Positions 12,515 through 32,922 are shown, counted from the stretch's first letter. The stretch is 64,000 nt of DNA from Candidatus Heimdallarchaeota archaeon (GCA_019057375.1 DXJF01000104.1:1-64000); one strand, 5' to 3'. The notes: generated by a model from the letters alone, not told the origin. Numbers and translations: made by a program.

Positions 12515-12853
12515 TTATTTTTCCGGATTTGACTTTCTCTCTTTCAAAATTTCCAAAGATATCTCTGAAAGAAAGAAATCTTCAAGCTTTATCCAAGAAG
12601 TCTTAACAAGAATAGGGAACTCGTAAGATGTAAGGGATGTACATTTGTGGTTAGAATACGAGAAAATCTCAGGATGTCCTATTTCTCCACAGAGAAGACA
12701 AATTCGCCATCTTGCTGATGACATAAAAAGCTTTTGATAAGATTCAGAATAGAATAATATTCCCTCTTCAAAAGGAATCTTTGACAAAATAGAACAGTAT
12801 TTTTTAGCGATGGATCTTATTAGTTCTTTTTTCCTATCGGTAATGTCAGGCAT
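12515..12853 (-). CDS. Unassigned CxxC-HxC putative zinc-finger protein, paralog 1 of 7
   Basis: MPDI...ARWRICLLCG...HKC...FPILVKTSW..L..FF, aligns with six other ORFs in the window. Confidence 0.8.
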   Translation of the reverse strand: MPDITDRKKELIRSIAKKYCSILSKIPFEEGILFYSESYQKLFMSSARWRICLLCGEIGHPEIFSYSNHKCTSLTSYEFPILVKTSWIKLEDFFLSEISLEILKERKSNPEK

Positions 12854-12907
12854 ATTACATCTCTCTTCATAAGGTGAAAAAATAAAAGAAGATTCCGAAT
12901 AAATTAA

Positions 12908-13186
12908 CTATTGTCTGAAATCTTCAGCTTGAAAAATTCCTAAGGGATAAATACCTTCAGTAGGTAAATTAGGTATCTTATCTATGATTGCTTTAATAGC
13001 ATCAATATTTTTTGCATCCCATTGACAGAGAATCTTCTTAATGTGACCTTCTTCATTTAAGATTGCCCAACTTTTAACCCAGTAAGCATCGGCATTACAT
13101 AAACCTTTAACTCCTTGTCCAATAGGAGTTGCAGCTTCCACAGGAGCTGGTTCTGGGAAAGGGTGTATTGCTAGAAATTTTGGCAT
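12908..13186 (-). CDS. Small DUF4242-like (dimeric alpha/beta barrel) protein
   Basis: MPKFLAIH...YWVKSW...ILCQWDA; GGAGG SD before ATG 13186 (the longer ORF-track start is unlikely); family is inference. Confidence 0.6.
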   Translation of the reverse strand: MPKFLAIHPFPEPAPVEAATPIGQGVKGLCNADAYWVKSWAILNEEGHIKKILCQWDAKNIDAIKAIIDKIPNLPTEGIYPLGIFQAEDFRQ

Positions 13187-13272
13187 GTTTTTTAACCTCC
13201 TAATTTTTTGCTTTTGTTCTAATTTTCGTTTTGTTCTTTGGTAGAAAAAAAATGAAAAGGTGATTTTGCATT

Positions 13273-13932
13273 CTAGACTATAGTGAAACAAATGACATCA
13301 GTTGGTGCAAAGGGATCGGGAACTGGTTCAGGGAAAAGACCAAGAGGATTCATATAATACTCTGTGACTAAGTTATATGTGCCAGGTTCTAGTTCTCCAG
13401 GTTTGAATAAAGCGCCTACATTAAACCACCATAATGCTTCATCACCATATGCATCTATAAAGAAAAGAGCTGGCTTAATTGGTGTATAGGTCATTTCCAA
13501 TTCAACACCATTTAGATAGATTTTTACAGTCCACCAAGATAGATACTCGAAACATCCTTCATTAATAGTATCATAGGTGAAAACTACTCCAAACCAGTCA
13601 TATAATATATATTGAGCGAATTGAAGACCAAGTTCAGTTACATAAAGTGCTGCGTAAATACCATGAGCATCTTCATAGCGATAAGTTAAACCATCATACC
13701 ATGGAACAATTCTTCCACCATTATATCTTCCATCAAGAACCGCAGGTAATATTTCTCTTTCAATATCGAATTCTGCATTATATACTAAAGTAGTTCCTCC
13801 GTTTAACATTGCATTAAAACTAGCTTGAACGTCTCCATAAGTAACATAGTCATTAGCAGCAGCAACAGGGAGTAATCCAAAGAGAAGAACGCAAAATGCA
13901 CTCAAAGTGATTACAGTTTTTTTCTTTTTCAT
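13273..13932 (-). CDS. Secreted hypothetical protein
   Basis: KKKK + hydrophobic signal peptide (AAA cleavage-like site), GGAGG SD. Confidence 0.75.
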   Translation of the reverse strand: MKKKKTVITLSAFCVLLFGLLPVAAANDYVTYGDVQASFNAMLNGGTTLVYNAEFDIEREILPAVLDGRYNGGRIVPWYDGLTYRYEDAHGIYAALYVTELGLQFAQYILYDWFGVVFTYDTINEGCFEYLSWWTVKIYLNGVELEMTYTPIKPALFFIDAYGDEALWWFNVGALFKPGELEPGTYNLVTEYYMNPLGLFPEPVPDPFAPTDVICFTIV

Positions 13933-13955
13933 TTTTTAACCTCCAAATGAATTAT

Positions 13956-14024
13956 ATGGAACAAAACACGACACATATATGCGTCGCGTTTTGCCACATA
14001 TATGTGTGACAAGAACAGACACAT
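13956..14024 (-). promoter_or_regulatory. Three tandem palindromic operator-like sites (ATGT-N13-NCAY) directly downstream of a TTTTATAT TATA box
   Basis: Sites at 13956-13976, 13979-13999, 14004-14024; CACATATA cores 23 and 25 bp apart. Confidence 0.65.
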
Positions 14025-14077
14025 ATAAAAAGTTTTCTCATAAAATTGTGATTCTATAGAAATAAAATAGAGAAAAA

Positions 14078-14518
14078 TTATACTCGTTCTTCTTCAGTTG
14101 CAGGAATCTTCGCTTGTTCTGATTCCTTTGTTTCCTTTGATACTTTAGTAACCAAGGTCAGTGAGGGGAGTCTATCGATACCTGCTTCTTTCATGAATTC
14201 CTTGTAAGTATCTGTTAAGAAGAATTCCTTTAGTTTATACCAAGATGTTTTAATGAGAACCGGAAAATCATGCACGTCTAATAAACATTTGTGCTTTTCT
14301 AACTCTTCTCCTTCCTTTAGATCTTTCTGGGTTTTGGATTTCAGTATATCTCCACATTTTAAGCAGAATTTCCACCTTGCGGGATGTATATTTAACTTAT
14401 CATTTGTTTTCACATAGAGAATCAATCCTTCGTTAAAAGGTATCCTCCAAATAGAGACAGCATATTGTTTTGCTATCTCTCTAATCTGTGATTTTTCAGC
14501 ATCAGTTATATCTGGCAA
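14078..14518 (-). CDS. CxxC-HxC putative zinc-finger protein, paralog 2
   Basis: TTG start (LPDIT) after AGGAG SD; ARWKFCLKCG...HKC...FPVLIKTSWYKLKEFF. Confidence 0.8.
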   Translation of the reverse strand: MPDITDAEKSQIREIAKQYAVSIWRIPFNEGLILYVKTNDKLNIHPARWKFCLKCGDILKSKTQKDLKEGEELEKHKCLLDVHDFPVLIKTSWYKLKEFFLTDTYKEFMKEAGIDRLPSLTLVTKVSKETKESEQAKIPATEEERV

Positions 14519-14536
14519 TGAAAATCCTACTCCTAC

Positions 14537-14563
14537 GTGTACTAGAATTTGACACATATAATA
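14537..14563 (-). promoter_or_regulatory. TATA box plus ATGT-N13-ACAC site of paralog 2
   Basis: TTATATGT-gtcaaattctagt-ACAC; near-identical arrangement (TTCTAGTACAC) upstream of paralog 3. Confidence 0.6.
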
Positions 14564-14669
14564 AATCTTCCGTATTACTCAGATCTAATTATCTAGTAAG
14601 ATAAATTATCTCAAATTATCAGAAAGTATTATAAAATCTGGTGAGTTAACATTGTGATTAAATAGTTGA

Positions 14670-16601
14670 TTGAGCAAGATGAAAGGAATTTTCGTTAAAG
14701 AGTTAGAAGATATAGAATCACTCATAGATAAAGGAAAGTATAACGTGGCTTTAGAGCATATTGATTCAATATCATCTCAGGAAGCAATTTCTGCAGAGGA
14801 GAAGACAAAATGTACTATTTTTAGATATCGGGTATATTCTGAATTAGCTAAGTATGCTGAAGCTATAAAGCTTGGTGAAAAAGCCTTTGAGGAAAGCCAA
14901 AAACTAAATAATAAACTCCTAATGTTTGATTCACTCGTATATTCTCCTTACATTTACTTTGTTACTGGAGAATATGAATTAAGAAAGGAGAAAGTTAAAC
15001 TTGCTGGTCAAATACTTGAATCAATTGAAGATAAGGAGTCATCGAATTATTTTCTCAGAAGAGCTATATTTCTAACTATGAAAAGTGATAGTTTTGAACA
15101 AACTATAGAAAATCTTGAAGAAAGTATTGAAATCTCTAAGAAATTTGGATTTGATAGAATATTAGTTGATGCATACCATACGCAAGCTTGTACTTATCTT
15201 TGGTCTGGAGGAATCACAAAATCTCTTAAACTAAATCAACAAGCATTAGATCTTGCTGAAGAAATAGATTACTACTGGGGAATCACCGGTACTATGTTTG
15301 CTTTAGCTGTTAACTATTTGCATAAAGGGGAATTAGAACTAGCCCTGGATTATTTCCTACAAACAAAAACGCTAATTGAAGAAGGTGATGACTTATATTT
15401 TATAGCCTGCTTGTATTTGGATCTAGGTTATTTATATTGGTTAAAAAGAGATCTTAAATCCTCACTTGATTATTATAAGAAATCTGTTTCCACTTTTAAA
15501 GAAGCTAAAGTTGTAAGTACACGTCATTTACCATGGACTCTATTCCGAATGAATTTAGTTCTTATTGAAATGGAACAGTATGATGAAGCACTCAAGAATA
15601 TTGAACAGATTGAGCTCTTATTCCTAATGAAAGATACTCCTGTTTTCAAACTATTCTACCATCTTGCAAAAGCTGTTTTTCTTAAAACAAAAACAGATGA
15701 TGATTGTTGGAATGAAGCTACACTTCTACTCGAGGAAGTTGCTGATGAAGAACTTGTTTATCTTGAGTTAAATGGTTTAGTAATCTTTCATTTATGTGAT
15801 GTATATCTAAAGAAAATACAAACTTCAAATGATTTGGATGCATTTGAGAAACTAAAAAATAGGATACAAGAGTTAGCAGAAATGGCTAGAGAGCAAAAAT
15901 CTGTCATTCTGCTTGTTCAATCTCTCTTGTTGCAATCAAAGCTAGAACTAATTGATTTAGACATTGAAAAAAGCCAATCGCTATTAGGAAAAGCACAATC
16001 TATTGCAGAGGAAAAAGGACTTATTAAACTTGCAAAGGTTGTTTCAAATGAATTTGATATTCTCTTAGATCAATTGAGTACTTGGGAAGATATGTCAACG
16101 TATTTACCAAGCTTAGAAGAAAGGTTTGAATTTACTCATATTGAAAATTATCTAAACAGAATGATGAGAGACTATATTATACATGAAAGCATTGTTGATG
16201 AAAAAGAAGCACCAGCATTTTTCTTACTACTGAATAAGGAAGGGGCTATTCTGTTTTCTGAGATATTCAATGAAGTATCTCTGGAAGGTGAATTACTCAA
16301 AGAGATATTATCATCAATTGCCAGATTCAAGACAAGTATATCATTGACTCCTGAAACAATCAAGAGAATGAAATATAAAAATTATACAATTGCAATCAAT
16401 GTTCAAGAAGATCTATTTATAGTTTATACTTTTATAGGAAAATCCTATTATGCGTTACACAAACTCAAATCCCTAATCCAGGAATTTCGCACTTTTACAA
16501 GTGAATGGAATGTGTTTTTTGATAGATTACAGGAGAGTAATGAGTTAACATTCTCAGAAAGGAAACTGTTATCAGAATATGTTGAAAGCGTTTTTCTATA
16601 A
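14670..16601 (+). CDS. TPR-repeat protein with C-terminal longin/roadblock-like domain
   Basis: Multiple TPR-like helical repeats; C-terminal FLLLNKEGAILFS...IVYTFIGKSY region; paralog at 21826-23592. Confidence 0.75.
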   Translation: MSKMKGIFVKELEDIESLIDKGKYNVALEHIDSISSQEAISAEEKTKCTIFRYRVYSELAKYAEAIKLGEKAFEESQKLNNKLLMFDSLVYSPYIYFVTGEYELRKEKVKLAGQILESIEDKESSNYFLRRAIFLTMKSDSFEQTIENLEESIEISKKFGFDRILVDAYHTQACTYLWSGGITKSLKLNQQALDLAEEIDYYWGITGTMFALAVNYLHKGELELALDYFLQTKTLIEEGDDLYFIACLYLDLGYLYWLKRDLKSSLDYYKKSVSTFKEAKVVSTRHLPWTLFRMNLVLIEMEQYDEALKNIEQIELLFLMKDTPVFKLFYHLAKAVFLKTKTDDDCWNEATLLLEEVADEELVYLELNGLVIFHLCDVYLKKIQTSNDLDAFEKLKNRIQELAEMAREQKSVILLVQSLLLQSKLELIDLDIEKSQSLLGKAQSIAEEKGLIKLAKVVSNEFDILLDQLSTWEDMSTYLPSLEERFEFTHIENYLNRMMRDYIIHESIVDEKEAPAFFLLLNKEGAILFSEIFNEVSLEGELLKEILSSIARFKTSISLTPETIKRMKYKNYTIAINVQEDLFIVYTFIGKSYYALHKLKSLIQEFRTFTSEWNVFFDRLQESNELTFSERKLLSEYVESVFL

Positions 16602-16772
16602 TCTGAGAGATATTAGATCCCACATTACAGTTTTTTTCATTCTTTATTAATACTCTAGATTTACTAAAATCATCAAGACAATTTTCCAAAGAACTATACA
16701 ATATACTGTCTAATAAGGGATGATAATTGAACCCTAGTTTCTAAATCGAAGTTTCTCTTTTCTAATACAAAA

Positions 16773-17213
16773 TTATTTAGATTCTTCGGATATTACTTCA
16801 GAAACTTCTGTTTTGATCGTATCGGCTTTAACTTGCTTAACAATAACTTTAGGTTTAGGTAGCTCAGATAATCCGATCTCTTTTAGAATCTTATTGTGTT
16901 GCTTTTGGATTAAGAAGAATTTTCGTAGTTGAAACCATGAGGTTTTCACTAATAAAGGAACATCTTCAAATTCCAAAATGCAAGAATGATTAATTGTTTC
17001 ATCCCTAGTTTTTGTGTCTCTACCTAAAGTAGTTTTGAGAATCAAACCACATTTAAAACAATAACGCCATCTTGCGGGATGAATAAACAATTCGTTGTTT
17101 GTTTTAACATATGCTACAATACCTTTATCGAAAGGGATAGTCCAAAGCTCTTGAGCATATTTTTTCGCTATTTCCCGAATTTCAGATTTTTCTGAAGCAA
17201 GTATATCTGGCAA
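16773..17213 (-). CDS. CxxC-HxC putative zinc-finger protein, paralog 3
   Basis: TTG start (LPDIL) after AGGAG SD; ARWRYCFKCG...HSC...VPLLVKTSWFQLRKFF. Confidence 0.8.
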   Translation of the reverse strand: MPDILASEKSEIREIAKKYAQELWTIPFDKGIVAYVKTNNELFIHPARWRYCFKCGLILKTTLGRDTKTRDETINHSCILEFEDVPLLVKTSWFQLRKFFLIQKQHNKILKEIGLSELPKPKVIVKQVKADTIKTEVSEVISEESK

Positions 17214-17233
17214 GAGAATCACTCCTGTTGAGG

Positions 17234-17260
17234 GTGTACTAGAAACGGTTACATATAAGT
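17234..17260 (-). promoter_or_regulatory. TATA box plus ATGT-N13-ACAC site of paralog 3
   Basis: CTTATATGT-aaccgtttctagt-ACAC. Confidence 0.6.
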
Positions 17261-17334
17261 TTTCTTTTATCTGAAAAAACCTCTTTTTGAATCCATTGGA
17301 GTAAATTTAAGAAACTATATTCAATTGATGTTAT

Positions 17335-17880
17335 TTGGTAAAATTGTCACTTCATGATAGAGTAGAATTTTGGTTTATTTCCTTTATACACGATACAATG
17401 TATAGTCTTTTTATGAATGCGGAAAAACTCCTGTTGCCTGCAGGTTTAAAAGAAGGAGATCATGTTCTTGAAGTAGGCTGTGGTCCAGGATTTTTCACAT
17501 TACCATCTGCAGAAATTGTTGGAGATAAAGGGTTCATTTATGCTATAGATATCAATCCTTTTGCTATTAGAAAGGTTGAGAAAAAAATCGCAAAAGCTGG
17601 TGTTAAGAATGTTAAAACTATGATTGTTGATGTAACTGAAACAACTTTAAAGGATTCCATCATAGATATAGCTTTCTTCTTCGGTGTTATTCACTCATTA
17701 CATAGTATCATTGATAGAGTTGTATTAGAGATGCATAGAATCCTGAAGGATGAAGGGTTAATTTCTATACAGAAGTCAGTAAAATTTAAGGATGGTCTGG
17801 TAGACATCATAACACAGAATAATAAGTTCAAGTTCATAGAGGAAAAAAAGAGAATGTTTGTTTTTCAAAAAATAAAATAA
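17335..17880 (+). CDS. Class I SAM-dependent methyltransferase
   Basis: VLEVGCGPGFFT, YAIDIN motifs. Confidence 0.9.
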   Translation: MVKLSLHDRVEFWFISFIHDTMYSLFMNAEKLLLPAGLKEGDHVLEVGCGPGFFTLPSAEIVGDKGFIYAIDINPFAIRKVEKKIAKAGVKNVKTMIVDVTETTLKDSIIDIAFFFGVIHSLHSIIDRVVLEMHRILKDEGLISIQKSVKFKDGLVDIITQNNKFKFIEEKKRMFVFQKIK

Positions 17881-17935
17881 AAAGAAAGCAAATTAACCCA
17901 GTTTATTCTGAAATTATTTTAAAAAAATAGAAGAA

Positions 17936-18976: not shown

Positions 18977-19098
18977 TTTTGCTCAACATTTCGTATGCTT
19001 CCCTTTTTGAATAGGTTCTCATTTAAACAACCAAAGATTGATACTTCAGAAAAGTAAAGTTAGTGAAAATAAGAAAAAAAAGAAAAAGTAACATAACG

Positions 19099-21424: not shown

Positions 21425-21829
21425 ATGGTGAACATAATGACTGCTGAAACTGTGGAGTTGAAATTTGATCAAGAAGAGATAGATAAAGCTGAGGAAGAAT
21501 ACAAGAAGCTTCATCTAGATCCTGCTCAACAAGACATGGTTGACTCCATAACAAAAATCATGAATGAACTGGTGCCAATACCTGAAGCAGCTATTAAGGG
21601 ATTCACATGGAAAGTCATGAGTAATTGGCAGAGGATGCGTAGAATTACTATAGCTGAGTTAAATAATAGACCTCTAAGAGATAGAATAGAGGTAACCAAA
21701 GAGATGATTAAGCAAGCAAAGAAATTTTTTGTTAGTCTTCTTTCAGAATCTACACCTGAGCAGAGAGAGATACTGGAAAAAAAGTTTGATACGGTTTTAA
21801 AACAAAGCTCAGAGTTATTGAAAAATTAG
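21425..21829 (+). CDS. Hypothetical helical protein
   Basis: 134-aa ORF filling the gap; stop overlaps the convergent TPR gene. Confidence 0.7.
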   Translation: MVNIMTAETVELKFDQEEIDKAEEEYKKLHLDPAQQDMVDSITKIMNELVPIPEAAIKGFTWKVMSNWQRMRRITIAELNNRPLRDRIEVTKEMIKQAKKFFVSLLSESTPEQREILEKKFDTVLKQSSELLKN

Positions 21830-23592
21830 ACAAAGATTGATTCTAAATAATCAGATAATCTTGTTCTGTCAGACAAACTCAGTTCTTGATTGGAGTTTAT
21901 TTTTGTGCTTAAATCTCCCCAGATTTCTGAAAATGTGCTAAAATCAGTGATAAGCTTCTTTATTTTCTGTACAGCAGAATAAGATTTACCAACAAAAACA
22001 TAACTAAGTAGCATATCTTCACTTTGATAAAGAGCAATACCAAAATTCCTAAATTGAAGACGATGAGAAGTGTTTTTATCAGGTTTTTTTTCTTCTAGAA
22101 AGTCATGTATTGTAGTTATAATCCCCTCAACTAAATCATTTTCTAGAGCAATAACTTTGAAATTATCAGAAAAGACAACATGACCAGTTTTGTCCATAAT
22201 CAAGAAAATATTTGGATCTTCATTTTCATGAGAAACATCTGCAAAATTTTGAGCTTTTTCTAGCATTATTTTTGCTTCTTCAATTTTAAGTTCTATTAGC
22301 GATAAGTGGGATTTGAGCATATAGGTTTCAGCGAGTAGGATTGATGATTTCTGAGTTTCAGCTAATTTATCTAATTGGTCTAGAGTCGCCCTAAGAGATT
22401 CAAATAGAGTTAAATCATTAGTTTCTTTCAATCTTTTTAAATAAAAATCACACAGGTGAAACAAAGCCAAACTGTTCATTTCAATATAGAAGAACTTCTC
22501 TTGAACTACATCTTTCAACATTAGTTCTATTTCACCTTGATTTTCTTCTAATGAATCAGTCTTTAGAATAATAGATTGAGCTAATTTGTAGATACTCATA
22601 AAGGAATATCTTTCTTCGCTTTCATCTTGAAGACTTCTCAATGTTGCTACTATTTCTATTTTTTCTAATATCTGTTTTGCTTCTTCTATCTTACCTAGTT
22701 CTAGATACACTAAAATTAATCTAAAATTAACAGCAGGATAATGTATATGTCCAAGATGTTTTCCTCTTTTTATTTGCTCTATACTCTTATTATAATACTG
22801 GAGAGAAGCAGCTAAATCCCCTTTCTGCCAATAAAAGAATCCCAGATCAGCATAAATAGCTCCTAGCATATAGGGGGCATCAATTTCCTCAGCAATGGAT
22901 AAAGCTTTCAAAGAATATCCCAAAGCTGTATTCAATTCCCCTTTTTGCAAATAAATTGCAGCAATATTAGTAGTACATGCTGCCTGTCCTACAATATTAC
23001 CAATTTTGGTGAAAAGCTTCAAACCTTCATCATAGTATTTACCAGCCTGTGCATATTTGGCAGTCTTCCAGTATGTACTAGAAATAGTAAAAAGTAAACA
23101 AGCTTTTTCATAATCATCTCCGATTTGATCTAAAATAGATAAAGATTGCTTTAGGCGCTCTAAATAGGTTTCTACATCTTCTCCAAGTCTGAATTGTAAT
23201 ACAATAGCTTTTTGTTTCAGATATTCTTTAGTTTCTTGTATTTCTGAATCTTCAAAAACCTTTTTCGCTTGGTGAACCTTCTCAAGAGCTGAATTTAAGA
23301 AACCTAGAATATTTAGAGTACGAGCATAATGTCTAGCTGAATCAAAAATTAGAAACTTATTCCCAAGTTTTACACTTTCATCATATGCTTGTTTAGCATT
23401 TTCTAATGCCTCAGAGAAGGGTTGAATATCAAGAAATATCCTTGTTTTGAGGATTTTTGCTTGAATGATTTCTTCTTCAAGAAGTTCATTTCTTTTCAGA
23501 AGATTATCCAATCGTTTCAAAGCTTCTTGAAATTTACTGGTAACAAATAATTGTTCTATTTCTTTTAACTCAGTAGAAAATACTCCTTTCAT
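21826..23592 (-). CDS. TPR-repeat protein with C-terminal longin/roadblock-like domain (paralog with internal deletion)
   Basis: Aligns end to end with 14670-16601 except for a missing block before the C-terminal domain. Confidence 0.75.
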   Translation of the reverse strand: MKGVFSTELKEIEQLFVTSKFQEALKRLDNLLKRNELLEEEIIQAKILKTRIFLDIQPFSEALENAKQAYDESVKLGNKFLIFDSARHYARTLNILGFLNSALEKVHQAKKVFEDSEIQETKEYLKQKAIVLQFRLGEDVETYLERLKQSLSILDQIGDDYEKACLLFTISSTYWKTAKYAQAGKYYDEGLKLFTKIGNIVGQAACTTNIAAIYLQKGELNTALGYSLKALSIAEEIDAPYMLGAIYADLGFFYWQKGDLAASLQYYNKSIEQIKRGKHLGHIHYPAVNFRLILVYLELGKIEEAKQILEKIEIVATLRSLQDESEERYSFMSIYKLAQSIILKTDSLEENQGEIELMLKDVVQEKFFYIEMNSLALFHLCDFYLKRLKETNDLTLFESLRATLDQLDKLAETQKSSILLAETYMLKSHLSLIELKIEEAKIMLEKAQNFADVSHENEDPNIFLIMDKTGHVVFSDNFKVIALENDLVEGIITTIHDFLEEKKPDKNTSHRLQFRNFGIALYQSEDMLLSYVFVGKSYSAVQKIKKLITDFSTFSEIWGDLSTKINSNQELSLSDRTRLSDYLESIFV

Positions 23593-25548: not shown

Positions 25549-25652
25549 AAAGAGACTTAGTTCGTTTTTTCTTTTTAATGTAGTTATTCACCAAAAAAGG
25601 TAATTTTGTTAATCCACAACACTCATAATTTGTGACTGGGGGAATTATCAAG

Positions 25653-25865: not shown

Positions 25866-25898
25866 AGAAATTTTATCAATATAGAAAGAAAAAGAAGA

Positions 25899-27188
25899 TC
25901 ATCCATAAATTGATGTATCTGCGAATGTTTCAGGATAGTCTTCGTCTTCGAAATCTTCTGGTTTCTGACTTGGTGAAGGTTTCTGATCTGGTAAAGATTT
26001 AGTCTTAGGATATCGACCATGTCTTTCACGATCTTGTTCTCTTTCTTGTTTGTACAAGTAATATCTTCTGATATCTTTCTTCATGAACATCTCAATACGT
26101 CTAATCATATTTCTTTCTTCGTGATCTATTAGAGAGATTGCGACACCAGCTCTTTCCATCCTTGAAGTTCTTCCTATTCTATGAATATAATTTTCGGGAT
26201 TTCCAATAGGTAGATCATAATTGAAGATATGAGAAACATGAGGTATGTCTAATCCTCTTGCTGCAACATCTGTCGCAATAAGACAACTGATTTTACCTTT
26301 TCTAAACTCTCGCATAGAAATTTCTCTTTGTCTTTGTGACATATCTCCTTGAAGTGAACCTATTCTCATATGGATTCTTTTATCATTACGCAGTTTCTGC
26401 TCTAGGTTTGTACCCCATCTTTTGGTATTAACAAAAACAATACTTGATTTTGGCTTTTCTCTTAATAGAATATTAACAAAGGAGTTGTATTTTTTCTTAG
26501 GATCCGGTACTTCATAGTAATATTGCTTGCAAGAACCTACAGTTAGATCATCTCTACTAACATCAATCTCAACAATGTTCTCTTCTAAACTATAATCAAG
26601 CATTATGTCTTTTACTTCTGGTAGCATAGTAGCTGAAAACAGAAGAAATCTAGGGTAGATGTCTTTCATAGCTTCAAATAAAATGTAATTAACATCAGGA
26701 AGGAAGCCCATATCGAGCATACGATCAGCCTCGTCAAGTACTACATATTTTACTTCTTTGAAAGAAATTGCTTTTCTGTTGAATAAATCTATCAGTCTTC
26801 CAGGTGTAGCTACAACAATTTGAGCTCCTGAGCGGATATTTTCTATTTGTCTATTTATGGATACTCCTCCATAAACCTCAACAGCTTTTAATCTTCTATG
26901 TCTATTCAGTTTGGATATTACTGTATAAACTTGTTTACATAATTCTCTAGTAGGAACTAGAATAACTGCTTGAATTTTTCTTAGTGTGGGGTCGAGTTCT
27001 TCGGTAATTGGTATAGCGAAAGCTAATGTCTTTCCTGTACCTGTTTTAGCTTGCGATAAAATATGTGTTTTTTCTCCCTTAAGAATCTCAGGGATAGCTT
27101 TTTCTTGAATTTCTGTTGGGGTATGAATTCCCATTTCTTGTAAAGCTTGTTTTATTTGGTCATTAATCTTGTAATCTTTAAATTTCAT
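25899..27188 (-). CDS. DEAD-box RNA helicase (paralog 2)
   Basis: AKTGTGKT, PTREL, DEAD, SAT, ARGLD, HRIGRTSR. Confidence 0.95.
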   Translation of the reverse strand: MKFKDYKINDQIKQALQEMGIHTPTEIQEKAIPEILKGEKTHILSQAKTGTGKTLAFAIPITEELDPTLRKIQAVILVPTRELCKQVYTVISKLNRHRRLKAVEVYGGVSINRQIENIRSGAQIVVATPGRLIDLFNRKAISFKEVKYVVLDEADRMLDMGFLPDVNYILFEAMKDIYPRFLLFSATMLPEVKDIMLDYSLEENIVEIDVSRDDLTVGSCKQYYYEVPDPKKKYNSFVNILLREKPKSSIVFVNTKRWGTNLEQKLRNDKRIHMRIGSLQGDMSQRQREISMREFRKGKISCLIATDVAARGLDIPHVSHIFNYDLPIGNPENYIHRIGRTSRMERAGVAISLIDHEERNMIRRIEMFMKKDIRRYYLYKQEREQDRERHGRYPKTKSLPDQKPSPSQKPEDFEDEDYPETFADTSIYG

Positions 27189-27301
27189 TAGTATCATTCG
27201 TGTATCTTTTTAATCAAACTAGGTATCATTGTGACGAATGTTTTCGCTTCAAATTTTTTCATAGTTTTAATTGCTGAAAAAGATAGGTGTTCTATTTTCT
27301 T

Positions 27302-27349
27302 ATCTTCCTCAACTCTAAGCTACTTAATTTTTCTAGCTTTAAAAGACTT
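27302..27349 (-). promoter_or_regulatory. Promoter and putative transcript 5' end of DEAD-box gene 2
   Basis: AAGTCTTTTAAAGC-N21-AGTTGAGGAAGAT, same as 7848-7895. Confidence 0.7.
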
Positions 27350-27440
27350 TGTTATTGCAACTTTAAGAGCTAAACCTTCTAATAATGAAATTTACCAGAA
27401 TGGAGAAATTTAGGAGAAAGAAAGAGGTCACTACATAATA

Positions 27441-27471
27441 CTTATAATTTGTACAGTATTCCAAGTACAAA
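27441..27471 (+). promoter_or_regulatory. TATA box (CTTATAAT) followed by palindrome TTTGTAC-N10-GTACAAA upstream of paralog 4
   Basis: Perfect 7-bp inverted repeat at 27448-27471. Confidence 0.55.
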
Positions 27472-27485
27472 AAGTTGAATGAAGA

Positions 27486-27848
27486 ATGCCAGATATACCA
27501 AATAAAGAAAAACAAGAGATCAGAATATTGGCAGAGGATTTCAGTTGTTTAATTGCAACCCTTTCATTCAAAAAAGGTTCTTATATCTTCTATGAAGTTT
27601 TCAAGTCTCTCTATAGTAGATCAGCTAGATGGAGATATTGTTTGATTTGTGGTAATATAGATTTACCTAAGGATTTTATCCATAAGGATCAAAACTACCC
27701 CCAAGTATCTTGTCACAAAATCCAGTCACTAATACCAACTTCTTGGATGAAACTAAGAGATCTCTTCATTAAAGGTAATTATAAGAAACTCCTTAAAGCA
27801 ATGGGGGTTCAAAATGTAGAAAAAAAGACAACCAGTGTCTCTAATTAA
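27486..27848 (+). CDS. CxxC-type putative zinc-finger protein, paralog 4 (divergent second ligand pair)
   Basis: MPDIP...ARWRYCLICG...SCHK...IPTSWMKLRDLF. Confidence 0.75.
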   Translation: MPDIPNKEKQEIRILAEDFSCLIATLSFKKGSYIFYEVFKSLYSRSARWRYCLICGNIDLPKDFIHKDQNYPQVSCHKIQSLIPTSWMKLRDLFIKGNYKKLLKAMGVQNVEKKTTSVSN

Positions 27849-27875
27849 ATAAAGTGTGAGAATATTCCTTTAGAT

Positions 27876-28352
27876 TTAGGATGTCTCCCCAATTTTTATT
27901 GCTTCAGGCAATTTGTTTTCTTCTGCAACTGCGAATATTTCTCGTATAATTGGTATCTGACCTGGTTTGTCTGTTACTCCAGCATTTTCTAGAGCTCGTA
28001 TATGCTTCTTTGACATAAAGAAGTCCCGCAGTTTATACCATGATGTAGTAATTAAAACAGGAAAACGATTCGCACCTAAAGTACATTCATGGATTCTCTC
28101 TTTTAATTCAGATTTCTTCTCTTCTGAATACTTATCACTACCAAGCTCTCCATCATCAATCATCAACTCGGTGGGTTCAATAATCCCACACTTAAGACAG
28201 AATTTCCACCTGGCAGATCTAATATACAGTGCTTCAAAAGTTTCTGAATAAACTAATAGCCCTTCATTGAAGGGAGATACCCATAATCCCATTGCATAGC
28301 GTCTTGCAATTGATTTTATAAATGATTTTTCAGCATTAGATATTTTTGGCAT
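27876..28352 (-). CDS. CxxC-HxC putative zinc-finger protein, paralog 5
   Basis: ARWKFCLKCG...HEC...FPVLITTSWYKLRDFF. Confidence 0.8.
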   Translation of the reverse strand: MPKISNAEKSFIKSIARRYAMGLWVSPFNEGLLVYSETFEALYIRSARWKFCLKCGIIEPTELMIDDGELGSDKYSEEKKSELKERIHECTLGANRFPVLITTSWYKLRDFFMSKKHIRALENAGVTDKPGQIPIIREIFAVAEENKLPEAIKIGETS

Positions 28353-28443
28353 ACTACACCCCTTGCCAATATGATTGAATCCATACCGACATATTAAGAT
28401 ATCTCTACAACTCTAAGCTGAAAAAAATTGAAATATATTACAA

Positions 28444-28827
28444 CTAGACTTGAAGCAAACTACCTATGAGGAACAAAATTGCTACAAGTGTTTTAATTAC
28501 GGGACACAACTTCATAGGAATTACTGGAACTCTTGCACCTGTAAAGGATGAAAGAATAGCCATTATTACAAGCATTGCAGAAGAAAACCAGAAAACAATC
28601 TGAGGGATAAGTGTAGTTATATTTCCGAAAATAGTTACAAAGACTACAAGTGTTCCAATAAAGATGAGAGTTATTCCTTCAGCTATCCATTCCATTTTAA
28701 TAATATGCTTATTATCTTTAGATATTTCACCAAATCCTTTAACTATTGATTTAGTTGGAAAGATGTGGGCGATACCCCAAACAATTATCAAACCTGATCC
28801 TATGTAGAGAAGTATGGAATTTATCAA
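28444..28827 (-). CDS. Hypothetical 4-TM membrane protein
   Basis: Four hydrophobic segments, WGIAHIFPT motif. Confidence 0.75.
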   Translation of the reverse strand: MINSILLYIGSGLIIVWGIAHIFPTKSIVKGFGEISKDNKHIIKMEWIAEGITLIFIGTLVVFVTIFGNITTLIPQIVFWFSSAMLVIMAILSSFTGARVPVIPMKLCPVIKTLVAILFLIGSLLQV

Positions 28828-28963
28828 GATTAATCACTTGAATTGGTAGTAGATTTACATTAATAAAAGATTAATGTCTTTTCCTTCTCTTTTTCTTAAG
28901 ACAGTATTAAAATTCAAAAAACATAAAAAAAAATGAAATAAGGACTAATATACAACATGATTC

Positions 28964-29113
28964 TTAAAATGACTGAGATACAGCAGATAAGGAGAGCAAT
29001 CCAATTACGATTAAGACACATATAGGGATAGCATAAGCTAGAAACAGGCCAACATAGTAAATTGCTTTTTCCAGTATAGCTTTTCTTCTTATCTGACTAA
29101 TATTTGAAATCAT
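28964..29113 (-). CDS. 49-aa single-TM microprotein, cassette A (MISNISQIRRKAILEKAIYYVGLFLAYAIPICVLIVIGLLSLSAVSQSF)
   Basis: GAGGTG SD before ATG; same length as and alignable with 30584-30733. Confidence 0.7.
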   Translation of the reverse strand: MISNISQIRRKAILEKAIYYVGLFLAYAIPICVLIVIGLLSLSAVSQSF

Positions 29114-29191
29114 TTTTATTTCACCTCTTTTGTAATCAGCTCCTTAATACTCCACCAGAGGAAGATGGTTATTTACTGATCTTGAATAGGT

Positions 29192-29305
29192 ATCAGGAGA
29201 GCCAGATGAAAACTTACAGCACACGAATATTCATCCAGCTCAGATCCTGATCCGTAGTAGACAAAGGGTCTGTTGTAGTGAGTGTTTCAGCAAGAAACAA
29301 TCAGC
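29192..29305 (-). ncRNA. Putative structured leader/ncRNA, cassette A: 23-nt conserved hairpin + ~30-nt linker + ~19-bp stem-loop
   Basis: GCTGATTGTTTCTTGCTGAAACA at 29283-29305 identical to 30875-30897; ATCAGGA/TCCTGAT, GAGC/GCTC, GATGAA/TTCATC stems at 29192-29251. Confidence 0.5.
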
Positions 29306-29396
29306 GTGTTAGAGATCAACCAGATTAAATGTTGATCAAGATATTATTGTAAGTGCAAGAAGAAGAAGAAAAGTGATTCATTCACTCCTCTAAATC

Positions 29397-29549
29397 TTAT
29401 ATATATCTTACTGCTACTAGAGCTCCTCCAAAAACTACACCAAGAGCGTATAGAAATACTGGTAGAGCGAATCTGAGAAATCTATATAGATATACTATTG
29501 GTCTTGAAATTTTGAGTTTATAAAACCACACAGGTCGTCTGTAATTCAT
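29397..29549 (-). CDS. 50-aa aromatic/basic membrane microprotein (MNYRRPVWFYKLKISRPIVYLYRFLRFALPVFLYALGVVFGGALVAVRYI)
   Basis: GGAGGTG SD before ATG; C-terminal TM helix. Confidence 0.65.
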   Translation of the reverse strand: MNYRRPVWFYKLKISRPIVYLYRFLRFALPVFLYALGVVFGGALVAVRYI

Positions 29550-29580
29550 TCCTTTTCACCTCCAAATCAGTTATAGAAAA

Positions 29581-29621
29581 AGGGAGAGCTTCAGCTTACC
29601 CTGGAAGAGGGTATTGCTGAA
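29581..29621 (-). promoter_or_regulatory. Switchable hairpin over the stop codon of the basic peptide, cassette A (attenuator-like)
   Basis: TTCAGC-AA-TACCCT-CTTCC-AGGGTA-A-GCTGAA; alternative AGGG(TA)AGC-TGAA-GCT(CT)CCCT followed by T-run. Confidence 0.5.
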
Positions 29622-29742
29622 AAGCTAAACCTAAACGAGATTTTGATCTTAGGGCGCGACGAGCTCTCTTGAACTGCTTTAACTCCTTTTGGAGTGCCTT
29701 AACCTTTTGGTCCAACAAGTTTGAAACTTCATCATACTTCAT
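29596..29742 (-). CDS. 48-aa Arg/Lys-rich coiled-coil microprotein, cassette A (MKYDEVSNLLDQKVKALQKELKQFKRARRALRSKSRLGLAFQQYPLPG)
   Basis: AAGGTGA SD; 24/48 identical to 31829-31975 without gaps. Confidence 0.8.
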   Translation of the reverse strand: MKYDEVSNLLDQKVKALQKELKQFKRARRALRSKSRLGLAFQQYPLPG

Positions 29743-29768
29743 TTTTTTCACCTTGTGATTTCTTTCAC

Positions 29769-29862
29769 ATGTAGGACTTGCTGCGACATCCTATATAAAG
29801 GAGTTTGAGTGGGAAATTGTTGTCACAAAGAGAAATGTGAATGTCGGACTTAATGCGACATC
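29769..29862 (-). promoter_or_regulatory. Cassette A promoter: TATA (CTTTATATAG, 29791-29800) with two copies of a 21-22 bp operator-like palindrome
   Basis: ATGTAGGACTTGCTGCGACATC (29769-29790) and ATGTCGGACTTAATGCGACATC (29841-29862). Confidence 0.65.
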
Positions 29863-30030
29863 ATAAACATATGTGCAAGGATGCACACACACGTAATTCA
29901 CAGATTTAAAGGGCTAAATAGTAGATATGAAGTATTTCAGCTTTGCGGCAAAAATTACCTATTGTGTTAAAAAGATGTAGTCTTTTGGACAACTATTTTG
30001 ATTAGCAGAACAAAAAAAGAGATCATAAAA

Positions 30031-30477
30031 CTACCTGATTCGATCAGTGGAATCAGCTTTAGATTTAGCCTTAGAGGTGGAAGAGGAGACAATCTCTGAA
30101 ACTTCAGGATAAGTAGTAACTGTAACTGCTTCAACATCCCTCGCGATGTCTGGTTCTACACCGATCTTCTGAAGTGCTTTGACATACTTATCTGTTAAGA
30201 AGAAATCTGCCATTTCAAGCCAACTAGTGGTTACTAAAACAGGAAATCTATTAAAATCTAATGCACATTTATGAGTATCTTCAGTTAAATCTTGTATTGT
30301 ATCAATAGTTCCACATTTCAAACATATTCTCAAACGAGAAGATTTTTTGTATAAATCATTCATTGCTTCTTGATACAAATGTAAGCCTTGATCAAGCGGA
30401 GCATCCCATAGATCAAGAGCAAAGCGTCTTGCTCGGGAGCGAATTACTTTCTTTTTTGCGTTAGACATATCAGCCAT
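30031..30477 (-). CDS. CxxC-HxC putative zinc-finger protein, paralog 6
   Basis: SRLRICLKCG...HKC...FPVLVTTSWLEMADFF. Confidence 0.8.
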   Translation of the reverse strand: MADMSNAKKKVIRSRARRFALDLWDAPLDQGLHLYQEAMNDLYKKSSRLRICLKCGTIDTIQDLTEDTHKCALDFNRFPVLVTTSWLEMADFFLTDKYVKALQKIGVEPDIARDVEAVTVTTYPEVSEIVSSSTSKAKSKADSTDRIR

Positions 30478-30489
30478 TGTGCATCCCTC

Positions 30490-30520
30490 ATGTATTATTA
30501 AGTCCTACATCATTATAAAG
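30490..30520 (-). promoter_or_regulatory. Paralog 6 promoter: TATA (CTTTATAATG) followed by the cassette A operator
   Basis: ATGTAGGACTTAATAATACAT on the minus strand, matching 29769 and 29841 sites. Confidence 0.65.
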
Positions 30521-30583
30521 TTTGGCCCTATGGCACAAATTTCCTAATCTTGGTTTATGTTTTAAATTAAAAAAAAAGAGAGT

Positions 30584-30733
30584 TTAAGATAAGTTTGCTA
30601 GAGATAGAAATGCTACTACAAACAAAGCAACTGAAAACACTATGAGTATTGTATACCCCAAGAGTGTTCCTGCGTTTGTTCTTGTTTTTTCTATCCACAT
30701 TTTTCTTTTAGTGTTATTCACGTTTTTGGCCAT
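30584..30733 (-). CDS. 49-aa single-TM microprotein, cassette B (MAKNVNNTKRKMWIEKTRTNAGTLLGYTILIVFSVALFVVAFLSLANLS)
   Basis: GAGGTGG SD; homolog of 28964-29113. Confidence 0.7.
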   Translation of the reverse strand: MAKNVNNTKRKMWIEKTRTNAGTLLGYTILIVFSVALFVVAFLSLANLS

Positions 30734-30779
30734 TTATTCCACCTCGGTTTTTTTATGCAGATTTCTCCTCATAGTTTTA

Positions 30780-30897
30780 GGATTAGAAGGACCAAACTTA
30801 CTGGCTAGCAAGGGGGATAGCTGTTCAGTCTGGTCTTCCCGATCCCATCCTGGTGATGAAATCTGACTAATGAATGTTTCAGCAAGAAACAATCAGC
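30780..30897 (-). ncRNA. Putative structured leader/ncRNA, cassette B
   Basis: Same 23-nt element (30875-30897), 29-nt linker, GGAT/ATCC + GGAA/TTCT + GACCAGACT/AGTTTGGTC stem at 30780-30845. Confidence 0.5.
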
Positions 30898-30975
30898 TTG
30901 ATTTTTTTTAATTTAATTTTTGTAAAAAAATTCGAAAGAAGAAAATGGTTTTGAACATTTTCTTCCCCGTTACAA

Positions 30976-31392
30976 TTATCTAACTACATATATGTCAGCA
31001 TTTGTTTTAGCAACTCTAACTAAAACATATTCTACACCATCAGTTATTGATATTCTAGTTAATTCCTCAGCCACATCATCAACTGCATCTAATCTAACTA
31101 AATCAACAACAGCTGTGTTACCTAAAGCTGCTCTAACCACATATACATCTGCATCATCAACCTCATTAGTTCTGAATACTTCAATTGCTGCATTATCAAC
31201 TGTAGCAATTACCACATAATCAGAGTAATTTTCAGTTGCAGCTACAACATTATTGTAAGTTAAATTTATACTTGCTAGAGATACGATCAAAGCTACGATC
31301 ATTGGTAGAACTACTAATAATATTCTAGTTAGGTTAATTTCAGGACTAGTAAAATTTAGTCGAGCTAATAATTCTTTAGCAGATCTTTTCAT
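30976..31392 (-). CDS. 138-aa single-TM protein with six 12-13-residue beta-type repeats
   Basis: AGGAGGTGA SD; TM ~24-42; repeats at residues 62-138 each end in Arg. Confidence 0.8.
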   Translation of the reverse strand: MKRSAKELLARLNFTSPEINLTRILLVVLPMIVALIVSLASINLTYNNVVAATENYSDYVVIATVDNAAIEVFRTNEVDDADVYVVRAALGNTAVVDLVRLDAVDDVAEELTRISITDGVEYVLVRVAKTNADIYVVR

Positions 31393-31459
31393 TCTTTTTC
31401 ACCTCCTAGAATTTTTCTTTTTCTCCTGAATCTTTTTCAAGTAATTGCAAAAAATTAAT

Positions 31460-31476
31460 GAGCCCTTCATGGGCTC
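31460..31476 (-). terminator. Hairpin GAGCCC-ATGAA-GGGCTC followed by a T-rich run
   Basis: Perfect 6-bp GC-rich stem, then ATTAATTTTTT on the minus strand. Confidence 0.35.
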
Positions 31477-31530
31477 GAATTTGATCGTTCAGAGAGAGAG
31501 TTGTTTAAACAGTGTATCCACCTTCACTAA

Positions 31531-31791
31531 TTAATAGTAAAGCGACCCAAACAGGAGTAATTTTTGAGCAAGTGCTTTGTCCTTAGCCTTTCTCACTTTG
31601 TTCTCTATGCTTTCCTTGGAAATCTCTTTATCAGGTCGGGATTTTTTGTTATCGCGATCAGATAACCCTTCCACAAGTTGCTTGATGAACGAATAATAAA
31701 GCTCCTCATCAATGAATTCAAAATCATACAAAACTTTCATATTGTCAATTACTATTTGGCGCACTGTTTCTACTTGAACTTTGGATGCCAT
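31531..31791 (-). CDS. 86-aa hypothetical protein, cassette B
   Basis: GAGGTGA SD; follows the basic peptide in operon order. Confidence 0.7.
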   Translation of the reverse strand: MASKVQVETVRQIVIDNMKVLYDFEFIDEELYYSFIKQLVEGLSDRDNKKSRPDKEISKESIENKVRKAKDKALAQKLLLFGSLYY

Positions 31792-31814
31792 TCATTTCAC
31801 CTCTATTTGAAAAT

Positions 31815-31854
31815 GGTAAGACTCAAGCTTACCCGTAAATCAGGTATTGCCTGA
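31815..31854 (-). promoter_or_regulatory. Switchable hairpin over the stop codon of the basic peptide, cassette B
   Basis: TCAGGC-AA-TACCTG-ATTTA-CGGGTA-A-GCTTGA (G-U pairs); alternative GGTAAG-N7-CTTACC followed by ATTTT. Confidence 0.5.
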
Positions 31855-31975
31855 TTGGAAATCTAGAACGAGCTTTTGCTCTTCTAGTGCGACGAGCTCT
31901 TTTGAGCTTATTCAACTCCTTGCGGAGTGCCTTAATCTTTCGATCCAACATTAAACTTACTTCTTGTCCATACAT
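31829..31975 (-). CDS. 48-aa Arg/Lys-rich coiled-coil microprotein, cassette B (MYGQEVSLMLDRKIKALRKELNKLKRARRTRRAKARSRFPIRQYLIYG)
   Basis: GAGGTG SD; homolog of 29596-29742. Confidence 0.8.
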   Translation of the reverse strand: MYGQEVSLMLDRKIKALRKELNKLKRARRTRRAKARSRFPIRQYLIYG

Positions 31976-31986
31976 TTCTTTACACC

Positions 31987-32175
31987 TCAAATGTTTGCAA
32001 ATCTCCTTAGGTTCAGGTTAGAGTAGAAGCTAATAGTTGCAGTCAAGTATTGCTCATAGATATCCAATTTCTTGTCTGAATATCTGTTAGATAGAGTTTT
32101 CATGAGTTTATTGAGATCCTCGTAAAGTCTTCGAACCTCGGGATCCAGCAGTTTTTTTATTTCGTTTGTATTCAT
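31987..32175 (-). CDS. 62-aa helical hypothetical protein, first gene of cassette B
   Basis: GAGG SD 8 nt before ATG; stop overlaps the SD of the next ORF. Confidence 0.65.
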   Translation of the reverse strand: MNTNEIKKLLDPEVRRLYEDLNKLMKTLSNRYSDKKLDIYEQYLTATISFYSNLNLRRFANI

Positions 32176-32201
32176 TTTTCATGCCTCAGTATTTTTGTCA
32201 T

Positions 32202-32463
32202 TATTACTGCATTATGCAGCAACTTATTTAAGTGTCGTTATGCAGTAATATATTGCCGCATTGTACAGCAATAAAATAATATTGCTAAGAAACGACAAAA
32301 TAACTTTATGGGGGATTTTAATGTTTAAACACCATTCTATACCCTATAATGTATGTCATAAATAGAGGTAAATATTTCCGTTTAAGTTGTTTTTTCTGCA
32401 GTAATAAAATAACTTTAGGAAATTTTTACCTTGAGATATACATATATATACATTACTGCATAA
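32202..32463. promoter_or_regulatory. Divergent promoter region with repeated TATTRCTGCA-NNN-TGCAGYAATA sites and half-sites
   Basis: Sites at 32202-32224 and 32251-32273; half-sites 32241-32250, 32397-32406, 32451-32460. Confidence 0.6.
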
Positions 32464-32496
32464 ATGTAACATAGAAAAACATTAAGAGGTAAAATC

Positions 32497-32922
32497 TTGC
32501 CTGTAATTAAAGATGCTGAAAAAACACAAATCAAATCCAGAGCCCGTAGATATGCTCAAGATCTAGCTGATGCTCCCTTAAGTTCTGGTTTAGAATTATA
32601 TAGTGAAACTATCTCAAAGCTCCATGATCGTTCTTCCCGATTGCGAATTTGTCTAAAGTGTGGAACTATTGATAAAAAAGAGAGTCTTACTAATAGTAAT
32701 CATCATTGTGCATCTGGCATTGATAAACTCCCTGTTATCATTCTTACAAACTGGGTCATTTTGAAAAATTTCTTTCTCACTGATGAATACACTAAAGCGT
32801 TGCAAAAGCTTGGGGTTGAACCCATCACTGCTAAAACTGTTCCAAGTACAACTTCTTCCAAAGAAGAGAGTGCAGACACCAAAAAACAAATGGAAGAAAC
32901 ATTAGCTGATACAGCCAAGTAG
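32497..32922 (+). CDS. CxxC-HxC putative zinc-finger protein, paralog 7
   Basis: TTG start after GAGGT SD; SRLRICLKCG...HHC...LPVIILTNWVILKNFF; closest to paralog 6. Confidence 0.8.
   Translation: MPVIKDAEKTQIKSRARRYAQDLADAPLSSGLELYSETISKLHDRSSRLRICLKCGTIDKKESLTNSNHHCASGIDKLPVIILTNWVILKNFFLTDEYTKALQKLGVEPITAKTVPSTTSSKEESADTKKQMEETLADTAK

Follow-up and report, generated by a model that had tools for sequence, protein, structure and literature searches.

A genus-level family of small, putatively zinc-binding proteins and cluster-specific promoter dyads in Heimdallarchaeia

Results

Seven paralogs of one protein family

This report concerns seven small genes in a 64,000-nt stretch of DNA from a Candidatus Heimdallarchaeota archaeon (GCA_019057375.1, DXJF01000104.1:1-64000), the whole of which we call the window. 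The genes, named ZF_a to ZF_g after a putative zinc-finger motif in their products, encode one protein family whose members share 31-44% identity with the first copy, ZF_a. A core of ~110 aa with the pattern CxxCG...HxC is common to all of them save ZF_d, in which the HxC is lost, and thirteen columns are invariant in the seven-paralog alignment (K9, I12, A16, G31, L42, R48, C52, C55, G56, I58, T85, W87 and F94). A profile search of the complete 3.47-Mb, 159-contig genome returned exactly seven matches with E-values of 1e-49 to 1e-59, all seven within 20 kb of contig C54. Given these E-values and the restriction of matches in the genome to the seven copies, the relationship, as judged from the profiles, is far beyond chance. 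The motifs listed in a preliminary description of this DNA were all present, namely the (M/L)P-D-I N-terminus, EK..IR..A..Y/F, P..G...Y, R[WL]+xCxxCG, the variable loop, HxC, P-x-[LI], T[SN]W..L..FF and the low-complexity tails.

ZF_a (12515-12853, minus strand) encodes 112 aa without a tail and has pairwise ratios of nonsynonymous to synonymous substitution (dN/dS) of 0.05-0.29. It has no promoter of its own and stands last in the transcription unit, which runs ZF_b > unk219 > SCO4226-like > ZF_a. ZF_b (14078-14518, minus strand, dN/dS 0.10-0.32) and ZF_c (16773-17213, minus strand, dN/dS 0.09-0.26) encode 146 aa each and have 12 extra residues in the loop between CxxC and HxC, a loop that in ZF_e (27876-28352, minus strand, 158 aa, dN/dS 0.02) holds a 21-residue insertion. 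ZF_d (27486-27848, plus strand, 120 aa, dN/dS 0.19) has a short tail and reads QNY in place of the canonical HxC; as already noticed in the preliminary description, an SCH stands seven residues further on. Orthologs of ZF_d retain H-Q-C. The remaining two genes are ZF_f (30031-30477, minus strand, 148 aa, dN/dS 0.08-0.28) and ZF_g (32497-32922, plus strand, 141 aa).

The three TTG starts proposed earlier, at 14518 (ZF_b), 17213 (ZF_c) and 32497 (ZF_g), are correct, with ATG at the same codon in orthologs. Because the true starts are TTG codons that align with these ATGs, the longest-ORF coordinates of ZF_b and ZF_c are over-extended. The ATG at the longest-ORF start of ZF_b (14557) belongs to the promoter dyad described below, and the GTG at that of ZF_c (17222) lies within the Shine-Dalgarno sequence. 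For annotation this means that gene callers push two ZF genes into operator-like or Shine-Dalgarno sequence and that three ZF genes use TTG.

When 1.84 billion representative proteins were searched with the profile, 25 matches were obtained, of which ~23 are genuine relatives; P0024 and P0025 were rejected as repeat artefacts. Named members in the databases are annotated merely as ‘hypothetical protein’. Sixty related genomes were also searched. In the same genus (g1) 24/24 genomes contain the family, as do 2/2 of a second genus (g2), at 1-9 copies per genome; it was found in 0/34 of the other relatives, which cover the three remaining genera of the taxonomic family and the order- and class-level genomes. 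The earlier suggestion of a lineage-specific family agrees with this distribution over two Heimdallarchaeial genera. No fused or longer forms of the protein were found, a negative that carries little weight. By its neighbouring genes, the window belongs to a metagenome-assembled genome of Candidatus Heimdallarchaeota close to the AB_125 lineage, which one preprint places in Heimdallarchaeaceae (10.1101/2025.05.16.653879). ZF is a previously undescribed, genus-level family of small, putatively zinc-binding proteins in Heimdallarchaeia.

Predicted structure and database comparisons

AlphaFold2 models were built for two different paralogs, ZF_a and ZF_g, from alignments of 25 and 60 sequences. 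Both adopt one topology, with predicted local distance difference test (pLDDT) scores of 85.7 and 85.0 and predicted template modelling (pTM) scores of 0.79 and 0.77. The N-terminal part is modelled as a helical hairpin (helices 6-25 and 28-42) followed by a beta-hairpin, in which strands 49-52 and 58-60 are joined by the CxxCG turn (52-56). After the variable loop, H69-x-C71 opens a short helix, which is followed by a strand (81-84) and by helices 86-93 and 96-104. The models therefore predict a treble-clef-like C2HC site set in a four-helix scaffold. Across 60 sequences C52, C55 and G56 never vary, and the conservation of H69 and C71 is 90% or higher. With an isoelectric point of 7.6-9.4 and a net charge of +1 to +8, the core is mildly basic. 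In 44/58 copies there is a disordered tail of 22-38 residues with a high content of E, V, K, S, T and P, and the tails open with a conserved P-x-[PV]-[IV]-[IV].

The preliminary description had not recognised the family, and our searches of profile, sequence and fold libraries gave zero matches. No match above cut-off was obtained with Pfam (single proteins and all 25 members), NCBIfam, PHROGs or PADLOC, and no match to PDB sequences was found with the 7- or 60-sequence profile. Sub-threshold noise comprised Terminase_6 (E 0.0019 in 2/25 members), GLO3 ArfGAP (E 0.065) and SBP. The fold comparison that had been proposed for AlphaFold models assigned no known family, enzyme or other: Foldseek searches of the two models against PDB and BFVD gave no match (best E-values 0.8-2.8), and VIA-align against 48,161 chains gave best Z-scores of 5.1 and 4.9, below the tool’s noise guide, with a de novo designed helical protein among the best scores. 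An ESM Atlas search reached a top score of 0.85, to unnamed clusters, and gave no match. Helix-turn-helix (HTH) proteins (POU, HipB and MarR) appeared for the models at noise level (Z 3.2-4.0, or a Foldseek E of 7), and no Pfam or NCBIfam HTH match was found in any of the 25 members. The specificity-determining positions are scattered (5, 7, 11, 25, 26, 29, 36, 39, 45, 61, 64, 72, 78 and 83) and do not form a single recognition element.

Several known zinc-protein classes were considered. Zinc ribbons of the TFIIB, RPB9 and TFS type have two CxxC-type knuckles, each on a beta-hairpin, which together form a C4 (or C3H) site with a three-stranded sheet. ZF has a single CxxC, with a second pair H-x-C at a helix start, and was rejected as a zinc ribbon; Zn_ribbon_RPB9 matched 2/25 members at E 0.035-0.041, below cut-off. 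WRKY-GCM1 domains have the pattern C-X4-7-C-X22-23-H-X-H/C, a WRKYGQK-like strand and an all-beta four-stranded fold. This class was rejected on the cysteine spacing of 2, the mostly helical models and the absence of a Pfam WRKY, FLYWCH or FAR1 match, and the likeness of ZF to group III WRKY is confined to the H-x-C pair. The THAP (C2CH) domain has the order C-x2-4-C-x35-53-C-x2-H and a C-terminal AVPTIF box; ZF has the ligand order C, C, H, C with H-x-C and no Pfam match to it, and was rejected as a THAP domain.

In the treble-clef class one ligand pair comes from a zinc knuckle on a beta-hairpin and the other from the first turn of a helix, a layout that the predicted secondary structure of ZF would fit. 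In both models strands 49-52 and 58-60 frame CxxC 52-55, with H69 and C71 at a helix start, and neither Foldseek nor VIA-align recovered a treble-clef structure. Unlike that class, the ZF finger is embedded in a four-helix scaffold and its second pair is spaced H-x-C.

Among archaeal proteins, Brz is a small zinc-finger regulator of bop in Halobacterium salinarum, encoded beside its target (PMC2253796), and C(P)XCG zinc-finger micro-proteins are described from Haloferax volcanii (PMC11241148). They resemble ZF in being small and archaeal, in their CxxCG zinc knuckle and in that many are lineage-specific. However, they are shorter than 70 aa and carry two C(P)XCG motifs (C4), whereas ZF has a 110-aa helical scaffold with one CxxCG and one HxC and shows no sequence similarity to them. 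The protein family is new and its fold, on the models, possibly so; the role is most likely familiar in kind.

Old duplications in a conserved chromosomal cluster

When 46 copies from ten genomes were placed in a maximum-likelihood tree, each paralog of the window had its own orthologs, and the ZF duplications are therefore old and retained. This branching order places the origin of all seven orthogroups before the radiation of the genus. Pairwise dN/dS values of 0.02-0.33 indicate purifying selection on all seven copies, the HxC-less one included, and ligand-poor copies in general (QNY in ZF_d, HEG in P0009) are still under such selection. Two blocks are syntenic across the genus: FAD-oxidase/electron transfer flavoprotein (ETF), ZF_g, cassette B, ZF_f, cassette A, ZF_e, ZF_d and DEAD helicase, and separately ZF_b, unk219, SCO4226-like and ZF_a. 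GC content is uniform along the window. A mobile element or virus is ruled out by the uniform GC, the genus-wide synteny with housekeeping genes and zero phage or defence matches in PHROGs and PADLOC, and the cluster is chromosomal.

At the margins of the cluster, ETF alpha (35762-36976) carries a fused N-terminal 2x[4Fe-4S] ferredoxin domain and adjoins ETF beta and a FAD-linked oxidase (33289-35756). The window also holds two DEAD-box helicase paralogs (6499-7743 and 25899-27197), whose nearest relatives outside Heimdallarchaeota in the genome collection are from Bacteroidota at 35-40% identity.

Promoter dyads specific to the cluster

Five of the seven orthogroups (b, c, e, f and g) have, across species, a TATA-like box followed immediately by a 21-bp dyad, ATGT-N13-ACAY or a variant of it, that starts 31-49 nt before the start codon. 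An unbiased search covered all 4-mer dyads with spacers of 3-19 nt and compared 46 ZF promoters with 184 control promoters from the same loci. TGTA-N11-TACA ranked first (12/46 ZF promoters vs 0/184 controls) and ATGT-N13-ACAT second; the degenerate form ATGT-N13-ACAY was present in 16/46 ZF promoters and 1/184 controls. Genome-wide, 3/7 TATA-fused and 10/222 loose sites fall in this 21.5 kb (0.6% of the genome), where 0.04 and 1.4 would be expected. Matches elsewhere in the genome are nearly all inside coding regions, and other promoters within the window lack the dyad. That the dyad is a general promoter feature of the organism was rejected on the single control promoter among 184 and on the almost exclusively intragenic position of off-cluster matches. 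The loose pattern TTATGT-N13-ACAY is not commoner than a control pattern in the g4, g2 and g1 genomes.

The ZF_b dyad, ATGTGTCAAATTCTAGTACAC (14537-14557, minus strand), is fused to its TATA box (TTTATTAT), and its right half, TAGTACAC, is kept in 6/7 orthologs, genus g2 included. The ZF_c dyad, ATGTAACCGTTTCTAGTACAC (17234-17254, minus strand), is likewise TATA-fused, and CTAGTACAC occurs eight times in the genome, two of them at the ZF_c and ZF_b promoters. At ZF_e the site ATGTCGGTATGGATTCAATCAT (28371-28392, minus strand) is fused to TTAAT; conservation across six species is seen for the left half, TTAATATGT, and the right half is variable. The ZF_f promoter has a perfect ATGTA-N11-TACAT dyad, ATGTAGGACTTAATAATACAT (30490-30510, minus strand), and in orthogroup f the form ATGTAkGA-N8-MTACAT is perfect in 7/8 orthologs or species. 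The ZF_g site, ATTACTGCATAA (32452-32463, plus strand), directly follows the TATA-like box and is the same half-site as at cassette B. A palindrome in the ZF_d promoter, TTGTAC-N10-GTACAA (27449-27470, plus strand), is not conserved in orthologs.

Matching sites at some neighbours

Variants of these sites were found at three adjacent units. The gene unk219 (13273-13932) encodes a 219-aa secreted protein that bears a signal peptide or anchor at its N-terminus and has no Pfam match. It lies immediately downstream of ZF_b in the loci examined, and upstream of ZF_a where the contig reaches. Between its TATA box and Shine-Dalgarno sequence are three tandem dyads (13956-14024, minus strand), phased by 23 bp (13956, 13979 and 14002), an array that is conserved in six species; two unk219 paralogs away from ZF genes have no dyad array. 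Among the genomes searched, the dyad-bearing neighbours unk86 and unk219 are found only in the same genus.

Cassette A has a proximal dyad fused to the TATA box (29769-29789, minus strand) and a distal one ~50 nt upstream of the TATA box (29841-29861, minus strand). This pairing of one proximal and one distal site recurs in six species, and the second site is kept in genomes G013, G006, G001, G023 and G020. The 11-mer ATGTAGGACTT is common to the proximal dyad and the ZF_f promoter, which account for two of its three genomic occurrences. Cassette B is preceded by operator-like TTRCTGCA palindromes at 32204-32271 (32204-32222, 32238-32249 and 32253-32271), and TTACTGCA occurs there four times in 321 bp vs 0.02 expected. 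In G000, G013 and G006, TTACTGCA sites are common to the promoters of ZF_g and cassette B, whereas in G001 and G023 both promoters have ATGT..ACAT. The two promoters changed site type together between clades, a concerted switch.

The four divergent pairs named in the preliminary description were recovered, with intergenic distances of 113 nt for both ZF_b/tetratricopeptide repeat (TPR) gene and ZF_c/methyltransferase (class I), 288 nt for ZF_d/DEAD helicase and 322 nt for ZF_g/cassette B. Across the family ZF neighbours are diverse and divergently transcribed in ~20/46 cases. The stronger proposal, that each copy is a dedicated regulator wired to its neighbour, stands in part. Dyads are present in ZF promoters with matching variants at unk219 and cassettes A and B, so that it holds for three pairs; it fails at the TPR, methyltransferase and DEAD-helicase promoters, which lack the dyad.

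Other features of these neighbours were recorded. Between the divergent ZF_b and TPR643 promoters lies a second inverted repeat (AATTATCT..AGATAAATT, 14590-14625), kept in G013 and not in G006. The ORFs of cassettes A (28964-29751) and B (30976-32175) are conserved across the genus at 45-97% identity. Their products include Arg-rich coiled-coil peptides (51-53 aa), single-pass membrane peptides (49-50 aa), a protein of 86 aa that is present in 15/24 genomes of the genus and a membrane-anchored protein of 138 aa. In other species (loci L053-L070), ZF heads operons of the order ZF > (SCO4226-like) > right-handed beta-helix/NosD-like > TPR protein; genes of such operons are dispersed in the window (compare 8160-9344), where no ZF gene is followed by a beta-helix gene.

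Discussion

The family with its conservation, its predicted fold and the cis-elements specific to this cluster are directly supported. The reading we favour, at somewhat less than even confidence, is that ZF proteins are a new family of autoregulating DNA-binding repressors, with putative binding to the promoter dyads. In this model the proteins would bind the 21-bp dyads (ATGT-N13-ACAY and paralog-specific variants) sequence-specifically as dimers, and the targets would be the promoters of the ZF genes themselves together with those of the adjacent unk219, cassette A and cassette B. By occupying the DNA from the TATA box to the transcription start, a ZF protein would keep RNA polymerase from being recruited, and each paralog would act as an autoregulated local switch. 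Zinc binding, dimerisation, DNA binding and repression are the steps that we infer.

No other family in the cluster is multi-copy, the sites fall into at least four classes that are each conserved separately, and they lie in the promoters of the ZF genes and of adjacent units, which makes the paralogs natural candidates for the binder. The operator-like dyad in these promoters is downstream of TATA, with the transcription start placed by the usual archaeal TATA-to-start distance. Diverse and often divergent neighbours are usual for local regulators, and we count them in support. Repression by a protein that sits downstream of the TATA box and prevents recruitment of RNA polymerase is established in archaea, LrpA and MDR1 being examples cited in PMC2995911. 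Pyrococcus LrpA and Archaeoglobus MDR1, as treated in that account, also resemble ZF in having a dyad directly downstream of TATA in their own promoter and a local or divergent arrangement. Unlike ZF, such proteins have HTH, ribbon-helix-helix or Lrp folds, whereas ZF has no HTH match, a predicted C2HC site and putative binding.

Several points weigh against the repressor reading. No recognisable DNA-binding domain or fold was found in ZF with Pfam and NCBIfam profiles, Foldseek or VIA-align, and the charge of the core is only mildly basic. The enrichment p-values for the dyad are inflated because orthologous promoters are not independent, although the sites recur in separate orthogroups. Orthogroup d has no conserved site and orthogroup a no promoter, and the dyad is missing from the promoters of the neighbouring TPR, methyltransferase and DEAD-helicase genes. 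The match between ZF and neighbour variants is limited to some clades; the half-sites of cassette A in G001, for instance, differ from those of ZF_f. A final point is the presence of the same 21-bp TATA-fused frame (ATGTG-N11-CACAY) at the gene for a Cys-rich winged HTH (wHTH) protein, both in g1 and in g4, a genus that lacks ZF. The frame occurs at the wHTH gene in ZF-less g4, and the site architecture therefore predates the ZF family. From the resemblance of the sites, this wHTH protein would be the obvious alternative binder, at least for sites of the b, c and unk219 type. The earlier suggestion of regulators or nucleic-acid-binding proteins gains real, if indirect, support from the conserved TATA-abutting dyads, a phylogenetic footprint, and is left in doubt by the unrecognised fold and by the rival binder.

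Were the wHTH protein the binder, the ZF genes would be targets whose dyads are read by another factor, most likely this family-wide Cys-rich wHTH, and the ZF proteins would be small zinc-stabilised adaptors or chaperones. Their C-terminal tails would perhaps make the contact with protein partners from nearby genes, such as beta-helix/NosD-like, TPR, secreted and membrane proteins. We consider this leading rival unlikely but credible. The gene in question (G000:C145:58028-58483; L071:3029-3484) has upstream of it one of the few promoter-like sites located away from the cluster, and encodes 151 aa with a Cys-rich N-terminus and a sub-threshold TrmB/MarR-like wHTH. Its family is present in all five genera of the taxonomic family at 1-3 copies per genome, often as tandem long and short paralogs. 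Its promoter combines a distal GTGTG-N-CACAC palindrome with a proximal TATA-fused ATGTG-N11-CACAY dyad; it thus resembles the ZF genes in having a TATA-fused 21-bp dyad in the same frame in its own promoter and differs from them in belonging to an unrelated protein family that spans five genera.

The ZF_b, ZF_c and unk219 sites begin with ATGTG or ATGTA and end with TACAC, one position from the wHTH class, and a similar site is carried by a TPR gene elsewhere in the genome, on contig C125, both of which favour the wHTH protein. At least four distinct conserved site classes exist, however (wHTH with G5/C17, orthogroup f with A5/T17, cassette A with ATGTCG, and TTACTGCA), more than two or three wHTH paralogs would easily explain; positions 5 and 17 consistently set the classes apart, and a genome has no more than 2-3 of these wHTH paralogs. 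In the g4 genomes, moreover, there is no site enrichment beyond the wHTH gene’s own promoter. An adaptor role draws support from the composition of the E/V/K/S/T/P-rich tails with their conserved P-x-[PV]-[IV]-[IV] start, from the lack of a recognisable DNA-binding fold in the models, and from relatives in which a beta-helix gene lies downstream on the same strand for 8/46 ZF genes, often followed by a TPR gene. Against such a role, the window has no ZF gene followed by a beta-helix gene, and the neighbours of ZF genes are too varied for one dedicated partner interaction. Should the ZF genes prove to be targets in this way, the cluster would be the regulon of a Cys-rich wHTH sensor, and ZF would stay an orphan zinc-protein fold worth solving.

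The C125 gene mentioned above (G000:C125:6005-8050, L072) encodes a TPR protein of 681 aa, similar in kind to the products of the TPR genes of the window (14670-16601 and 21826-23592). A TATA-fused ATGTG..AACAT site lies ~100 nt ahead of the start of the C125 gene, and the C-terminal ~150 residues of its product have no Pfam match.

ZF could also be a family of RNA-binding zinc-knuckle proteins acting post-transcriptionally on leaders or hairpins of the adjacent microprotein cassettes, as the invariant R48 and the basic residues flanking the CxxCG knuckle might suggest, together with the position of ZF_e, ZF_f and ZF_g beside cassettes A and B. We judge this improbable: only three of the seven paralogs adjoin cassettes, ZF has zero matches to any RNA-binding family in Pfam, and the conserved elements linked to ZF lie between TATA and the expected transcription start and so are mostly untranscribed DNA. 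Very improbable is an immunity- or antitoxin-like small-protein array of a conflict or defence island, comparable to the immunity-paralog arrays beside secreted beta-helix proteins, for although divergent small paralogs do cluster here with genes for secreted, membrane and beta-helix proteins and for small membrane peptides in a lineage-restricted distribution, there is no PADLOC or PHROGs match, no toxin domain was found in neighbours, and old syntenic orthogroups under strong purifying selection at uniform GC are unlike fast-turnover conflict loci.

To return to the proposal of autoregulating repressors, its fullest form would have a new DNA-binding fold, a four-helix scaffold with a C2HC knuckle, arise in one Heimdallarchaeial lineage and expand to as many as nine paralogs, each having evolved together with an operator variant of its own for the control of envelope and microprotein modules, with the disordered C-terminal tails as effector or partner arms. 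We regard this extended version as possible, while leaning against it. To our knowledge, few Asgard transcription regulators are known beyond bacterial-type HTH families, and we know of none characterised in Heimdallarchaeia. Seven proteins set against about five site classes with natural variants offer a testable system for the origin and divergence of regulators and their sites. If the proposal is true, the cluster would be a compact natural case of regulators and operators that diversified together, in the archaeal group most closely related to eukaryotes.

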